Below are positions 58,715-64,000 of a DNA stretch of 64,000 nucleotides, in pieces. Source of the stretch: a virus; the IMG/VR virus record IMGVR_UViG_3300047157_000073, positions 1-64,000 of that record; one strand, written 5' to 3'. Position numbers and translations under genes: made by a program. The notes under the pieces are model-generated. The model saw only the letters and a list, made by a program, of their open reading frames with translations. It ran no database searches and had not been told where the DNA came from. Positions within the stretch are counted from its first letter, which is position 1. Every line of letters begins with the position of its first letter.

Positions 58715-61210
58715 ATGAACTTTTATACAAATGTAACACCATGGGGTAATACCCTGCTTGTCAGAGAGTATGTAAATGGAGAAAGGATTAATCGAAAGGT
58801 TAAGTATTCCCCTACACTATTCTGTAAAGTAATCAAAGAAACTAAACATAAAACTTTAGATGGTCAATATGTTACACCTGTAAAACATAATACAATCAAA
58901 GAAGCAAAAGAATGGTTAAAGTCTTATGAAGACCAACCACATCTTATTTTTGGTAATACTACATTTCAATATAACTATATTGCTGATGAATATCCTAATC
59001 ATGTAAAGTGGGATGTTGATAAAATTCTTATTGTAACGATTGATATAGAAGTTGCATGTGAAAATGGTTTTCCAAACCCAGAAGATGCAATTGAACCTTT
59101 ACTATCAATCACAATTAAGAATCATCAAAACAAACAAATATTAGTTTGGGGTACAGGTGAATATAAAAACACAAGAGAAGATGTCACTTATGTTAAATGT
59201 AAAAATGAAAAAGAATTGATACAAGAGTTTTTATCTTTTTGGCAAAAGAATCAACCAGATATTATTACAGGCTGGAACACAGAATTTTTTGATATACCAT
59301 ATGTTTGTAATCGTATTAAAAATTTATATGATGAAAATGAAGTGAATAGATTATCACCATGGGGTAATGTATCAGGTAGAGAAATTTATCAAATGGGTAG
59401 AAAACATCAAGTCTATGATATACAAGGTGTATCACATTTAGATTATTATGATTTGTATAGGAAGTTTACATATACCAATCGTGAGAGTTATAGACTTGAC
59501 CATATTGCCCATGTTGAACTCGGTGAGAGTAAAGATGATAATCCATACGAAACATTCCGAGAATGGTACTTAAAGGACTTCCAATCGTTTATTGACTACA
59601 ATATACAAGATGTAGAAATCGTTGATAGACTAGAAGATAAAATGAGATTGATTGAACTATGTCTAACTATGGCTTATGATGCCAAGGTTAATTATATGGA
59701 TGTACTTGGTTCAGTTAAATATTGGGATATATTAATTTACAACGAACTTCGAAAGAAAGGTATTGTTATACCACAAAAAATTCAAAGAAACAAAACTGAA
59801 AAGTTTGAAGGTGCATATGTAAAAGAGCCACAAGTTGGTTTACATAATTGGGTTATGTCTTTTGATTTAAATTCACTATACCCACATCTGATTATGCAAT
59901 ATAATATTTCACCAGAAACATTAGTTGCAAATGAAAAAGTTAAAAACATGTCTGTTGAGAAAATGCTAAATAAAAGTGTAGATACATCTGTTTTAAAAGA
60001 TGCGACTATGACACCAAATGGTGCTTTGTTTAAAACAACTCAAAAAGGATTTCTACCTGAACTCATGCAAAAGATGTATGATGACAGAGTAAAATTCAAA
60101 CAGTTAATGTTGGAGGCAAAGAAAGATTATGAAAGAACTAAAGACCCAAAACTTAAAAAAACGATTGCAAAATTTAACAACATCCAAATGGCTAAAAAGA
60201 TTTCTCTTAATAGTGCGTATGGTGCTATTGGTAATAACTGGTTTAGGTATTATAATATTTTGGTTGCTGAAGCAATTACTACCAGTGGTCAATTTGCTAT
60301 TAGATATATTGAACATTCTCTTAACGGGTATCTTAATAAAATACTTGAAACCAATGGAGAGGATTACATTATTGCATCAGATACGGACTCGGTGTATATT
60401 TGTTTTGACAAACTTGTCAGCAAAGTATTCAAAGGAGAACAAGATAAAAGAAAAATCGTTGACTTCTTGGACAAGGTCGCTACAGATAAAATCGAACCTT
60501 TTATTGATAAGTCTTATCAAGAACTTGCTGAATATGTAAATGCCTATGAACAAAAGATGCAGATGAAAAGAGAAGTGATTGCAGACAAAGGTATTTGGGT
60601 TGCAAAGAAAAGATATATTTTAAATACACATGATGTTGAAGGTGTTCGTTATAAAGAACCTAAATTAAAAATTATGGGTGTTGAAGCTGTGAAGTCATCA
60701 ACCCCTGCACCTTGTCGTGAAAAAATTAAACAAGCATTAACAATTATAATGAATGAAGATTCAAAAGTGCTAAATAGTTTTATACAAGATTTTAGAAAAG
60801 AATTTATGACATTAAAACCAGAACTAGTTGCGTATCCACGCTCTGTAAATGGATTAAACAAATGGACTGAATCACATAATCTATTTAAGAAAGGAGCACC
60901 GATACATTGTAAAGGTGCAATATTATATAATCATCTTTTAAAGGAGAAAAAATTACAAGGTAAGTATCCTTTTATACAAGAAGGTGATAAGATTAAATTT
61001 TTACATATGAAAATACCAAACACATATCAATCAACATCTATATCATTTATGACTAAGTTACCAAAAGAATTAAACTTACATAGTATAGTAGATTATGATA
61101 TGCAATTTGAAAAGTCATTTATAGAACCATTAAAATTTATTACAGGTATTATACAATGGCAGATAGATGGTAGTTATGGAACACAAGGAACATTAGAGGA
61201 GTTTTTCTAA
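58715..61210 (+). CDS. gp43: DNA polymerase, family B
   Basis: Exo DIE, GWNTEFFDIPY, YNIQDV; SFDLNSLYP; KISLNSAYG; ASDTDS; KKRY. Confidence 0.97.
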   Translation: MNFYTNVTPWGNTLLVREYVNGERINRKVKYSPTLFCKVIKETKHKTLDGQYVTPVKHNTIKEAKEWLKSYEDQPHLIFGNTTFQYNYIADEYPNHVKWDVDKILIVTIDIEVACENGFPNPEDAIEPLLSITIKNHQNKQILVWGTGEYKNTREDVTYVKCKNEKELIQEFLSFWQKNQPDIITGWNTEFFDIPYVCNRIKNLYDENEVNRLSPWGNVSGREIYQMGRKHQVYDIQGVSHLDYYDLYRKFTYTNRESYRLDHIAHVELGESKDDNPYETFREWYLKDFQSFIDYNIQDVEIVDRLEDKMRLIELCLTMAYDAKVNYMDVLGSVKYWDILIYNELRKKGIVIPQKIQRNKTEKFEGAYVKEPQVGLHNWVMSFDLNSLYPHLIMQYNISPETLVANEKVKNMSVEKMLNKSVDTSVLKDATMTPNGALFKTTQKGFLPELMQKMYDDRVKFKQLMLEAKKDYERTKDPKLKKTIAKFNNIQMAKKISLNSAYGAIGNNWFRYYNILVAEAITTSGQFAIRYIEHSLNGYLNKILETNGEDYIIASDTDSVYICFDKLVSKVFKGEQDKRKIVDFLDKVATDKIEPFIDKSYQELAEYVNAYEQKMQMKREVIADKGIWVAKKRYILNTHDVEGVRYKEPKLKIMGVEAVKSSTPAPCREKIKQALTIIMNEDSKVLNSFIQDFRKEFMTLKPELVAYPRSVNGLNKWTESHNLFKKGAPIHCKGAILYNHLLKEKKLQGKYPFIQEGDKIKFLHMKIPNTYQSTSISFMTKLPKELNLHSIVDYDMQFEKSFIEPLKFITGIIQWQIDGSYGTQGTLEEFF

Positions 61211-61314
61211 TGGCAGGTAAAGGAGATAAAAGAAGACCAATGAAAGTACCACAAGATGATTATGAAAAAAATTGGAATAGAATATTTGAAAAGAAAAAGA
61301 AAGAAAAAAAATGA
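61210..61314 (+). CDS. 34-aa basic phage peptide (not in ORF track)
   Basis: MAGKGDKRRPMKVPQDDYEKNWNRIFEKKKKEKK*; overlaps both neighbours; SD gagg. Confidence 0.55.
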   Translation: MAGKGDKRRPMKVPQDDYEKNWNRIFEKKKKEKK

Positions 61315-62501
61315 AATATAAACCATATAATTTAAAAGATGTTGTTAAGGCTTCTGAACAAGAAAAGTTTACAGTAGTATCTACCTTTGCTGGTGGCGGT
61401 GGTAGTTCCACAGGTTATCGTTTGGCTGGTGGTAAGATATTATGTGTGAATGAATTCGTTGAACAAGCCATAAACACATATAAAGAAAACTACCCAGACA
61501 CACCTGTACTACCAGATGATATAAAAAAACTTACTGCAGAAGATTTTAACAAGTATGGTGACATAGATATCTTTGATGGTTCACCACCATGTTCAGCATT
61601 CTCTGTATCTGGTGCAATGGTACAAGGCGGACACTCTAAAGGTTGGGGTCAAACTAAGAACTATTCTGATGGTAAGAAGATTGAGAATATAGAAGATTTA
61701 TTTTTTGAGTTTTTAAGAGTTGCAAAAGATTTAAGACCTAAAGTTATTGTTGCTGAAAATGTAAAAGGATTAACTGTAGGAGAGGCAAAGAAATATTATT
61801 ATAAAATTACAAATACATTTGAAGAAATAGGATATGATGTATCATCTAAAGTTTTAAATTCTGTTCACTATGGTGTTCCACAAACTAGACAAAGAACTAT
61901 CTTTATTGCTGTTCGTGAAGATGTAACACAAGAGATAGGACTAACATTTATGAATATTGCTAGTATCTTCCCAGATGAAAGTAAAGATGTTGTCACACTA
62001 GAAGATTGTTTAAGTGATGTAGAAGTAGATAGAAAAGAAGCAGATGAACTAACAGAAAAATTTAAAAATAAATCTCATTATGAAACTTGGTTGAAAATGC
62101 CAGATGACCCAGACAAGGTTGAAACAGGTTGTGATTATCATCCTAAAGGTCATCACTTTAATATGAAAAAAACATCTAGACATAAACCTGCTCCAACAAT
62201 TACAGCAACAGGTGGGGCTATGCATTGGACTGAACCTAGACCATTTACAATTAAAGAAACAAAAAGAATAATGTCATTACCTGATGATTTTAAATTAACA
62301 GGTAGTCATAGTCAACAGTCAGAAAGATGTGGCAGAATGGTACCACCTCTAATGATGAAAGCAATTGCAGAATCAATTTATGAAAAAGTATTGAAACCAT
62401 ACTATAAAAAAAAACCTAAAGAAATAGGTGGAAGAAAAGATGGTTTAGAACCCACTCGATATAATGATTGGGAATCGAAAGGAAGATGTATAGATTTTTA
62501 A
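61311..62501 (+). CDS. C5-cytosine DNA methyltransferase homologue (motif X GRMV) with DUF1674/SDHAF4-like C-terminal tail
   Basis: FAGGGG (I), DGSPPC (IV), ENV (VI), PQTRQR (VIII), RIMSLPDDF (IX), GRMVPP (X); tail KEIGG...EPTRYNDWESKGRCIDF. Confidence 0.9.
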   Translation: MKYKPYNLKDVVKASEQEKFTVVSTFAGGGGSSTGYRLAGGKILCVNEFVEQAINTYKENYPDTPVLPDDIKKLTAEDFNKYGDIDIFDGSPPCSAFSVSGAMVQGGHSKGWGQTKNYSDGKKIENIEDLFFEFLRVAKDLRPKVIVAENVKGLTVGEAKKYYYKITNTFEEIGYDVSSKVLNSVHYGVPQTRQRTIFIAVREDVTQEIGLTFMNIASIFPDESKDVVTLEDCLSDVEVDRKEADELTEKFKNKSHYETWLKMPDDPDKVETGCDYHPKGHHFNMKKTSRHKPAPTITATGGAMHWTEPRPFTIKETKRIMSLPDDFKLTGSHSQQSERCGRMVPPLMMKAIAESIYEKVLKPYYKKKPKEIGGRKDGLEPTRYNDWESKGRCIDF

Positions 62502-62502
62502 T

Positions 62503-63642
62503 ATGAAATATTCAAAGTATAATTTAAAAGATGTAAAAGAAGCATCGGCACAAAATAAGTTTAGTGTCATATCTACCTTTGCAGGTGGTGGTGGTTCATC
62601 TACAGGTTATAGACTTGCAGGTGGAAATATACTTTGTGTAAATGAGTTTGTAGAACAAGCAAGAATTACATATAAAGAAAATTACCCAGATACAAAAATA
62701 CTACCTGATGATATAAAACAACTAACAGGTAAAGACTTTTTAAAAACTGCTGGAATACAAAAAGGTGAACTAGATATATTAGATGGCTCACCACCATGTT
62801 CTGCTTTTTCAATGTGTGGAACACTAGGACAGTCTGGTTCTAAACATTCTGATGGTTGGGGTAAAACTAAAAAGTATTCAGACAATAAAATAGTAGAAAA
62901 TATAGAAGACTTATTTTTTGAGTATCTTAGAGTTGCAGAAGAAATAAAACCAAAAGTAATCATAGGAGAAAATGTTGCAGGTCTTCTCGCAGGCGAAGCA
63001 AAATTAAAGCTAAATGAGATTGTAAACACATTTGAAAAAATTGGTTATGATGTATCATATAAGATTTTGAATGCATCACATTTTGGAGTACCACAGTCTA
63101 GAAGGCGAGTTATCTTTATAGCAGTCCGTGAGGATGTCACAGAGGCCATAGGATTGACATTTATGAACATTGCTAGTATCTTTCCACAAGAGAATAAAGA
63201 AGTAGTAACAGCAGGAGAGGCACTAGAGGATTTAGAATTAGATAAAGAAGAAGTTAAATGGTGTACAGATACATGGTTAAGTTCCGCACATTACAAGGAT
63301 ACAGCATCTTTAATGCCAGATGACCCAGATAAAGTATTAGGTGGAAATGACTTTCATCCTAAAGGATGGCATTTCAATGTTAAGAAAATGTCTAGACATC
63401 ATCCAGCCCCAACAATTACGACAAATGCAGATGTTTGTCACTTTATTGAAAAAAGGCGGTTGACAATTCGTGAAATAAAGCGTATAATGGCTTTACCAGA
63501 TGATTTTATAGTGACTGGTTCTATGTCACAGAAAATAGAAAGATGTGGTAGAATGGTACCCTCATTAATGATGAAGGCCATTGCTGAATCTGTCTATAAA
63601 AATGTAATACAACCTTATAATTGGGTTTGTGGAATGGAGTAA
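62503..63642 (+). CDS. second C5-cytosine DNA methyltransferase homologue (motif X GRMV)
   Basis: FAGGGG, DGSPPC, ENV, PQSRRR, RRLTIRE..RIMALPDDF, GRMVPS. Confidence 0.9.
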   Translation: MKYSKYNLKDVKEASAQNKFSVISTFAGGGGSSTGYRLAGGNILCVNEFVEQARITYKENYPDTKILPDDIKQLTGKDFLKTAGIQKGELDILDGSPPCSAFSMCGTLGQSGSKHSDGWGKTKKYSDNKIVENIEDLFFEYLRVAEEIKPKVIIGENVAGLLAGEAKLKLNEIVNTFEKIGYDVSYKILNASHFGVPQSRRRVIFIAVREDVTEAIGLTFMNIASIFPQENKEVVTAGEALEDLELDKEEVKWCTDTWLSSAHYKDTASLMPDDPDKVLGGNDFHPKGWHFNVKKMSRHHPAPTITTNADVCHFIEKRRLTIREIKRIMALPDDFIVTGSMSQKIERCGRMVPSLMMKAIAESVYKNVIQPYNWVCGME

Positions 63643-63647
63643 AAATT

Positions 63648-64000
63648 ATGTCTAAAAATTATGACTTTACCTTTGCCCAACGGGAAGAAGGTTTTGATGA
63701 CCATATAGAACATTCGATTCGTGGATATACAAACTTACTAGAAGATGTAATTAGTCTATCTAGAAACTTTGTAGAAGATGAAACAAATGTTGTTGATATT
63801 GGTTGTTCAACAGGAAAATTAACAGAGGCCTTTGTAAAAGGTAATCAATCATTTTGTAAGTATGCTAATTATGTTGGTATAGAACTTGCTCCTAGTTTCT
63901 TCACAGAACTTGACGCAAGACATGAAAGAATGAAAAATGAATACTATTGGGCAAATGTTAATTTTGAAAAGAAAGATGTTCGTAATTACAAATTTGAAAA
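63648..64000 (+). CDS. cmoA: CmoA-like carboxy-SAM synthase, 5' part (runs off the window; not in ORF track)
   Basis: MSKNYDFTFAQREEGFDDHIEHSIRGYTNLLEDVISLSRNFVEDETNVVDIGCSTG, matching by eye the CmoA N-terminus D.TF...F.D.I..S.PGY..FV...T.V.DLGCS.G. Confidence 0.75.
   Translation, partial: MSKNYDFTFAQREEGFDDHIEHSIRGYTNLLEDVISLSRNFVEDETNVVDIGCSTGKLTEAFVKGNQSFCKYANYVGIELAPSFFTELDARHERMKNEYYWANVNFEKKDVRNYKFE

Follow-up and report, generated by a model that had tools for sequence, protein, structure and literature searches.

The core chemistry that concerns us here, the transfer of a carboxymethyl group onto C5 of cytosine in DNA, was already published in December 2025 (Yang et al., Nat Commun 2025, PMC12783734). 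There, SpCmoX of Synechococcus phage S-B43 (PDB 8YF3) is a DNA cytosine C5-carboxymethyltransferase that forms 5-carboxymethyldeoxycytidine in GC motifs, the wild type accepting only carboxy-S-adenosylmethionine (Cx-SAM). Its Arg350, standing in place of HhaI Asn304, contacts the carboxymethyl/carboxylate group of this cofactor, and the R350N variant is dead, accepting neither cofactor. SpCmoA, which was assayed, makes Cx-SAM out of S-adenosylmethionine (SAM) and prephenate, and SpCmoY ligates glycine onto the carboxyl group of 5-carboxymethylcytosine (5cxmC). We may take this system as a start to understand a gene block at the end of the stretch of DNA analysed here, bases 1-64,000 of the 123,703-base IMG/VR virus record IMGVR_UViG_3300047157_000073, which is rated 71% complete. 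In these 64,000 bases (hereafter the window), two paralogous transferase genes, cmoX1 and cmoX2, are followed by a cmoA homologue. Very probably this locus, set in a replication gene block, serves to carboxymethylate DNA cytosines by CmoA and by two CmoX enzymes in the manner of S-B43, its chemistry being predicted from homology, conserved residues and gene order.

A preliminary description of this DNA had proposed that the phage makes Cx-SAM and uses it through an Asn-to-Arg exchange in the transferases, and had mentioned, with reserve, a comparable natural system in a cyanophage. That system exists: it is the CmoA/CmoX/CmoY set of S-B43 (PMC12783734), and the proposal is supported by the close homology of the CmoX and CmoA products to the S-B43 enzymes and by the retention of all named CmoX residues. 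The two loci are alike in sequence (57-63% identity for CmoX, 58% for CmoA), in the Arg and SPPC signature, and in their site among T4-like replication genes. S-B43, a cyanophage isolate, has the order cmoA-cmoY-cmoX, with one CmoX and a CmoY, whereas the window phage, an uncultured, marine, T4-like myophage of 32% G+C that resembles Melnitz and the pelagimyophages, has the order cmoX1-cmoX2-cmoA with two CmoX paralogues, the first of them bearing a DUF1674 peptide, and lacks CmoY. Another cyanophage, S-CRM01, possesses a ligase-less cmoA-cmoX locus near gp43 and uvsX, uncharacterised and annotated as methyltransferases only. Of all isolates, S-CRM01 has the CmoA that comes nearest to that of the window (60.4%), and it differs in having a single CmoX, with no tail and with a 7-residue insertion in the recognition loop. 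The use of Cx-SAM is also reported for M.MpeI N374K, a CG-specific bacterial enzyme, in which a basic residue at the motif-X Asn likewise allows it (PMC12783734); this is an engineered Lys variant, whereas the window enzymes are natural, contain Arg and belong to the CmoX lineage.

What sets this locus apart is the fixed pair of diverged CmoX, the fusion of an SDHAF4-type peptide and the natural deletion of CmoY. The survey of 5,615 CmoX candidates in the published work drew on IMG/VR (PMC12783734), so that this contig may well be among them; the main text of that work holds no relevant passage on tandem or paralogous CmoX, or on Pelagibacter, and our search of the literature on CmoX and 5cxmC found only the Yang et al. 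work plus method papers. The module is one more member of the family, and comes from an abundant marine phage group akin to the pelagimyophages and to Melnitz, not from an isolated cyanophage. According to PMC12783734, what CmoX enzymes other than SpCmoX recognise has yet to be worked out; the diverged pair would be a natural source of two carboxymethyltransferase specificities, and close contigs with and without cmoY provide a natural comparison of free 5cxmC versus its amide. For an SDHAF4 peptide maintained by purifying selection on a DNA-modifying enzyme, no explanation was found in the literature searched.

Two transferases and a carboxy-SAM synthase homologue

Both transferases match Pfam PF00145 (coordinates and E-values are collected in Table 1) and find in PDB 8YF3 their best structural counterpart, over residues 5-362 of CmoX1 and 5-370 of CmoX2 (HMMER); the runner-up structure, M.HaeIII, is far behind (1.5e-23 and 5.2e-27, respectively). 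Aligned with the sequence of the S-B43 record, CmoX1 is 63% and CmoX2 57% identical to SpCmoX, and the two are 66% identical to each other. All SpCmoX residues to which PMC12783734 assigns a part in binding Cx-SAM, in contacting cytosine or in catalysis are invariant in both: the cofactor contacts F25, E47, F48 and D69, and S95-P-P-C98, E156, R200, R202 and R350. The SPPC motif, which served as a criterion in the search for CmoX enzymes (PMC12783734), places the catalytic cysteine at Cys94 in CmoX1 and Cys99 in CmoX2. The motifs that had been read in the translations by the preliminary description, the catalytic PC (here in SPPC), ENV, QxRxR and GRMVP, are indeed found in both transferases, as are the recognition-loop strings quoted for the two paralogues, and the HMMER alignments to 8YF3 confirm that the two Arg codons it had singled out correspond to SpCmoX Arg350. 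A structure model of CmoX1, built from a 21-row alignment, had a mean predicted local distance difference test score (pLDDT) of 64.1 and dropped below 50 both in the recognition domain and in the tail; it is too poor to add to a crystal structure that is 63% identical.

The third gene had been called CmoA-like from the part that lies in the window, where the frame is open from 63621 to the end, with an ATG at 63648. This part has only sub-threshold matches to generic methyltransferases; it is the full gene, taken from the record, that points to CmoA. Its best NCBIfam family is TIGR00740 CmoA (7.6e-36, positions 11-239 of 239; 124 bits, under the cut-off of 193.3), it matches E. coli CmoA 4GEK at 3e-26 and 1IM8 at 1.2e-23, and it is 58.3% identical to S-B43 CmoA over 98% of its length and 60.4% identical to the cmoA product of S-CRM01. 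Among 50,697 phage records, its nearest cmoA relatives are those of cyanophages, S-CRM01 and then S-B43. The residues that bind SAM in E. coli CmoA are listed as Tyr39, Asp62, Gly64, Ser66, Asp117 and Phe137 in PMC3663124. Tyr39, Asp62, Gly64, Ser66 and Phe137 are invariant columns in our alignment; Asp117 is Asp in the window CmoA but Asn in SpCmoA, and Asp89-Asn90 of the E. coli enzyme are Glu-Leu in that of the window.

The way the module would operate can be sketched from these homologies. CmoA would turn host SAM and host prephenate into Cx-SAM. CmoX1 and CmoX2 would flip cytosines out of double-stranded phage DNA, Cys94 and Cys99 attacking C6, and would move the carboxymethyl group of Cx-SAM onto C5 while Arg342 of CmoX1 and Arg350 of CmoX2 hold its carboxylate. 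The 5-carboxymethylcytosine formed in this way may shield phage DNA against host restriction enzymes. Two different short motifs would probably be marked, that of CmoX1 being most likely GC, as for SpCmoX, and, cmoY being deleted, the base would probably stay free 5cxmC in this phage.

A tandem pair, an empty ligase slot and a fused peptide

A scan of IMG/VR with the first transferase found 138 stretches encoding relatives, the best 80 of which were kept, their open reading frames (ORFs) being labelled by blastp against the window proteins and SpCmoY. They fall into clade A (49 loci, X1 at least 80% identical to that of the window) and clade B (31 loci, 69-73%). Linkage of cmoX with cmoA is constant across these loci, and G-R-M-V is present in every CmoX ORF that covers motif X. 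In clade A the usual order is gp43, a CmoY-like ligase, cmoX1, cmoX2, cmoA and uvsX, with X2 next after X1 in 43 of the 43 readable loci, while in clade B cmoA comes next after a single CmoX (30 of 30 readable loci). The tandem arrangement, which the preliminary description had taken for an additional feature with respect to the cyanophage system, is one: S-B43 has a single CmoX, and the pair is fixed in a whole clade rather than being the oddity of one genome.

The age of this doubling can be approached with a quick maximum-likelihood tree of 81 rows, comprising the window X1 and X2, the enzymes of S-B43, S-CRM01 and Melnitz, and, for the 80 loci, each distinct CmoX ORF that is complete and 360 amino acids (aa) or longer. 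This leaves out truncated ORFs and exact duplicates. A warning of long-branch attraction applies to Melnitz and to four rows of an 'alternative second CmoX'. Four well-supported groups emerge, X1 (24 rows), X2 (24), clade B (26) and the two cyanophage enzymes, their mutual order being unresolved. That these groups are separate indicates that X1 and X2 are ancient paralogues that have stayed side by side, and that they do not stem from a duplication of recent date.

The recognition-domain loop of X1 resembles that of SpCmoX and varies among X1 subclades. That of X2 comes past a conserved P-x-P-T-I-T; among relatives, 35 X2 ORFs extend over it and 34 of them have the same loop string, the pattern being unmatched in L030. 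Positions fixed for different residues in X1 and X2 number 53, against 202 shared fixed positions, and are densest at residues 61-120, 181-210 and 241-330. Comparison of the two sequences makes it the likelier reading that CmoX1 and CmoX2 have two target motifs, rather than one.

Five clade-B loci (L077:3530-4681, L083, L085:712-1890, L086 and L087) have a different second CmoX, placed in front of the main one. This alternative enzyme is 51-55% identical to X2, reads G-R-M-V-A and has a long, distinct recognition loop. There are thus at least two arrangements in which a double CmoX has arisen or has been preserved.

The ligase is the piece of the S-B43 system that is missing here. The preliminary description had advised a look at the downstream genes for one; none was found there or elsewhere in the record. 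PF00733 has no match in the whole 123.7-kb record, while the same profile detects SpCmoY (54.7 bits) and the ligase of relatives (44.4 bits), the best tblastn hit of SpCmoY against the record has an E-value of 4.7, and neither a GATase_7 glutamine amidotransferase nor a ParB_N domain is present in the record. In clade A, a CmoY-like ORF with an Asn_synthase domain stands before X1 in 39 of 45 readable loci, and 37 of these 39 ORFs are 44-48% identical to SpCmoY; in the remaining 6 of the 45, gp43 comes directly before X1 and the ligase is lacking, as in the window. In clade B a ligase precedes CmoX in 30 of 30 readable loci.

The DNA retains a trace of what happened. Homology to cmoY-bearing relatives (blastn) ends at window position 61287 and restarts at 61300-61311, with about 840 bp missing, and over its first 26 codons the 34-codon ORF found at this place shows homology to an extension that the relatives' CmoY-like ORFs have at their N-terminus. 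This extension is a short, basic peptide fused in frame to the clade-A ligases, starting with G-K-G-x-K-R-R-P and ending with N-W-D-x-I-F, and is absent in the ligases of clade B and S-B43. We read the 34-codon ORF as the scar of a cmoY deletion. On the tree, the closest relatives of the window X1 comprise one locus with a ligase (L012) and several without, and since the ligase is also present in clade B and in S-B43, its loss appears to be a recent deletion. With cmoY deleted, the expected end product is free 5-carboxymethylcytosine, and it is likely, judging from this gene content, that this phage ends with the plain, free base. The same is implied for S-CRM01, which has cmoA-cmoX only.

Variation is also met in the slot when it is occupied. 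Two of the 39 clade-A ORFs (L049:1613-2485 and L057:4022-4897) encode a ligase of 291 aa with no more than 22% identity to SpCmoY, and the protein that fills the slot in L081 (2-1324) resembles asparagine synthetase and contains a glutamine amidotransferase domain (GATase_7, 1.5e-23). From their sequences, these variant ligases suggest different amide products among close relatives.

The fused tail that had been noticed on the first transferase is confirmed by a match to PF07896 at the very C-terminus of CmoX1 (4.5e-14, 53 bits for a cut-off of 23.5, profile positions 21-50 of 50; 9.1e-16 and 55.7 bits in a second search). This family, DUF1674, we take to be SDHAF4, a small SdhA-binding protein that assists assembly of the succinate dehydrogenase flavoprotein in alphaproteobacteria and mitochondria; among 14 control genomes, PF07896 was found in Caulobacter only. 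The likeness is precise, in that the 31 residues at the end of CmoX1 match the final 30 positions of the profile, keep 10 of the 10 columns that are invariant in comparison with 26 bacterial DUF1674 C-termini and 3 phage tails, and end with Asp-Phe as do all aligned DUF1674 ends. The difference is that the peptide is here the tail of a phage DNA-modifying enzyme and not a free small protein.

Twenty of 45 clade-A X1 genes have the tail, in a patchy distribution on the tree. In 19 tail-bearing sequences (15 unique), the ratio of non-synonymous to synonymous polymorphism (pN/pS) is 0.15 in the tail and 0.135 in the body of the enzyme, the former value indicating that the tail is translated and under purifying selection. 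A collection of 5.8 billion proteins contains 12 clusters, with 625 member sequences, of PF00145+PF07896 fusions, all of which have 88-98% identity to the window over this part; in the sequences available the CmoX-DUF1674 fusion thus appears confined to one narrow marine lineage. The tail is absent in the INPHARED phage records (50,697), and the literature searched had nothing on a fusion of DUF1674/SDHAF4 to a DNA transferase.

One may imagine that the tail is a working SdhA-binding module, through which CmoX1 would be tethered to the flavoprotein of host complex II or would block it. We regard this scenario as unlikely. If true, it would link DNA hypermodification to the takeover of host central metabolism and would point to a host that uses SDHAF4, for example an alphaproteobacterium like SAR11; combined with the natural loss of CmoY, it would make of this lineage a phage whose DNA has free carboxylates at two motifs. 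A prediction of the complex between SDHA_PARDE (Swiss-Prot) and the C-terminal 47 residues of CmoX1 gave no answer (score 0.00) and weighs neither way. The tail was also tried as a route to the host, and no host was obtained: the nearest stand-alone DUF1674 genes come from metagenome-assembled genomes of Rhodospirillales and unclassified Gammaproteobacteria (67-86% identity over 27-39 residues), in a pattern-based scan biased to the exact peptides used.

Weighing the predicted chemistry

Several observations weigh against the carboxymethylation module as we picture it. The window CmoA scores under the NCBIfam equivalog cut-offs (124 versus 193.3 bits and 96.9 versus 285). Arg199 of E. coli CmoA, which forms a salt bridge with the carboxylate (PMC3663124), and whose equivalent the preliminary description had proposed to look for, is Glu and not Arg in the window protein, where it aligns with Glu191, between Lys190 and Lys192; Asn132 of the E. 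coli enzyme is Ile. Prephenate would be supplied by the host, and the record encodes no chorismate mutase. The two putative specificities are read from loop sequences, and the k-mer test had no significant signal: GpC occurs in none of 12 strongly depleted words and in 270 of the 1,679 other testable words (Fisher p = 0.23), so that genome word statistics were rejected as a pointer to GC protection. With a record only 71% complete, a ligase could sit in the missing 29%, and single-base frameshifts in uvsX and gp41 show that this record is not free of errors.

The lengths of the cmoX and cmoA genes, for their part, are equal to those in relatives. As for CmoA, the exchange of Arg199 for Glu is no refutation, because the biochemically active SpCmoA has the same Glu; it also shares the substitution at the Asn132 position. 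K-E-K at the Arg199 position is common to the window CmoA, SpCmoA and the S-CRM01 protein, and in all three an Arg follows at a distance of four residues, at a position that is Glu in E. coli. Reading the alignment in this way, we take the loss of Arg199 as a trait of an active phage CmoA clade, not as a defect.

Were the transferases ordinary SAM-dependent enzymes forming 5-methylcytosine, CmoA would be left to serve the cmo5U of host tRNA or to deplete SAM against SAM-dependent defences. Both proteins do match TIGR00675 (dcm) besides PF00145, members of their clusters are named 'DNA (cytosine-5)-methyltransferase 1' in public sources, and SAM depletion by CmoA is raised as a possible side effect in PMC12783734. 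Yet the Asn of the family is replaced by the very Arg that contacts the Cx-SAM carboxylate in 8YF3, and SpCmoX, which is 57-63% identical, does not use SAM (PMC12783734). Moreover, CmoB (PF08003) is not found in the record, which would leave a tRNA role of CmoA without its transferase, and wherever a related locus can be read, cmoA and cmoX are linked. Ordinary methylation is therefore exceedingly improbable. Granting that carboxymethylation takes place, its product might be further derivatised by a ligase that has escaped recognition, lying in the absent part of the genome or represented by the RimK-type protein. The incompleteness of the record allows for it, a RimK-like ATP-grasp ligase (PF08443, 2.2e-31) is encoded two genes upstream of the module, and S-B43 virions held the glycine amide only, with no free 5cxmdC (PMC12783734). 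Against this stand the position of the ligase, which 39 of 45 close relatives have directly in front of cmoX1 and all 30 readable clade-B loci in front of CmoX, with a deletion scar in precisely that slot here, and the example of S-CRM01, which likewise has no ligase at its locus. The RimK-type gene was rejected as a substitute ligase: it is alike in cmoY-bearing and cmoY-less relatives and is present in Melnitz too, which has no CmoA among the listed phage matches, so that it does not track the system. Further derivatisation appears to us quite improbable, and free 5cxmC is kept as the expected product.

The number of targets is less settled, since the pair might share the same or overlapping sites, both enzymes acting for example at GC, and be kept for dosage, for timing or for acting on hemi-modified as against unmodified substrates. 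The two are of one family and 66% identical, the GC motif of SpCmoX (PMC12783734) is so short that there is little scope for variation, and the 53 fixed differences are spread over the protein, beyond the recognition domain. The split between X1 and X2 is, however, as deep as that from the cyanophage CmoX (branches of 0.37 and 0.40 in the quick tree), and both copies are intact and adjacent in all 43 relatives, when a redundant copy would hardly be kept for long in a streamlined phage genome. Furthermore, the loop past P-x-P-T-I-T differs at most positions between the paralogues and is constant within X2 (34 of 35). A common target is, in our estimate, a rather unlikely alternative; two distinct motifs remain the preferred interpretation of the pair.

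Surrounding genes and genome-wide words

The genes of the block are all on the + strand, in the order gp43-type polymerase, 34-codon ORF, cmoX1, cmoX2 and cmoA (Table 1). The preliminary description had put the transferases directly after gp43; they do follow the polymerase, without being strictly adjacent to it, as the 34-codon ORF intervenes and overlaps both. The block is tightly packed, with junctions that overlap or measure 1-5 nt, and no terminator-like site was found on its + strand. The start of cmoA is 6 nt past the cmoX2 stop, with GGAG as ribosome-binding site 8 nt upstream of the ATG. Downstream of cmoA, the record continues with uvsX, a gene for a 2-oxoglutarate-Fe(II) (2OG-Fe(II)) oxygenase and gp41. 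By tblastn, the closest counterpart of the polymerase, matched along 100% of its length, is in Methylophilales phage Melnitz (64% identity), followed by cyanophage polymerases (53-55%); when the locus was compared by megablast with 50,697 phage records, there was no match.

Table 1. Positions in the window of the genes, codons and sites discussed (1 = first base of the window)
Feature	Position	Strand	Basis and remarks
RimK-type ATP-grasp protein, 471 aa	57034-58449		PF08443 2.2e-31, residues 125-293
gp43-type family B DNA polymerase	58715-61210	+	ORF call; upstream neighbour of the module, same direction
34-codon ORF	61210-61314	+	Sequence read; overlaps gp43 stop and cmoX1 start
cmoX1, C5-carboxymethyltransferase homologue, 396 aa	61311-62501	+	PF00145 1.5e-59; PDB 8YF3 E 1e-147
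CmoX1 recognition-domain loop, residues 293-306	62187-62228	+	Alignment; close to the loop of GC-specific SpCmoX
Arg342 codon of CmoX1	62334-62336	+	Aligned with SpCmoX Arg350; invariant column
DUF1674/SDHAF4-type C-terminal peptide, in frame on CmoX1, residues 366-396	62406-62498	+	PF07896
cmoX2, second carboxymethyltransferase homologue, 379 aa	62503-63642	+	PF00145 2.8e-57; PDB 8YF3 E 4e-138
CmoX2 recognition-domain loop, residues 301-314	63403-63444	+	Alignment; differs from the CmoX1/SpCmoX loop
Perfect sigma-70 consensus TTGACA-17-TATAAT	63461-63489	+	12/12 match; in cmoX2 near its 3' end, some 160 nt ahead of cmoA
Arg350 codon of CmoX2	63550-63552	+	Aligned with SpCmoX Arg350; invariant column
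cmoA, carboxy-SAM synthase homologue, 234 aa	63648-64352	+	Full gene from the record; runs past the window end at 64000

The RimK-like protein has about 175 C-terminal residues beyond its ATP-grasp domain that match no Pfam family, and its gene precedes gp43 in the relatives as well as in Melnitz. The latter phage (MZ577097.1) shows in the same slot the succession of a RimK-like gene, a small ORF, the polymerase and then a cytosine-C5 enzyme. This methyltransferase is 38-41% identical to CmoX1 and CmoX2, with Leu at the motif-X position instead of Arg or Asn, and is followed not by CmoA but by a Tet_JBP oxygenase (PF12851, 3.6e-11) and then by a 427-aa protein of no known family (L090:4010-6191). 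The gene content of the Melnitz cassette points to a different route of cytosine hypermodification, and the slot after gp43 seems to be a swap site for cytosine-C5 modification cassettes, CmoX/CmoA in one case, a methyltransferase with Tet/JBP in the other.

Beyond the window, two genes of the record are split when compared with L012, a relative 95-96% identical to it: uvsX into two ORFs (record 64362-65381, L003:3363-4381) by a 1-nt deletion, and gp41 also into two (record 66165-67555, L003:5166-6555) by 1-nt insertions. These are probably assembly errors in essential genes, and the ORF ends of this record need care.

Several restriction-type words are nearly absent from the record. GATC occurs once in 123.7 kb, for about 419 expected, ACGT twice for 81 and CCGG once for 20; GACTC, GAGAC, GACGA, CTCTTC, GATGGA, GGAACC and CTTAAG are also strongly depleted, and the observed/expected ratio of CpG is 0.31. 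We can therefore understand this phage as combining site avoidance with DNA modification.

Lastly, the perfect sigma-70 consensus listed in Table 1 is one of 4 such sites in the whole record. A TTGACA-N16-18-TAnnnT pattern is kept in 15 of 32 relatives, and the window site lies inside a conserved coding motif; as read from these sequences, it is a possible candidate, of low weight, for an internal promoter of cmoA.

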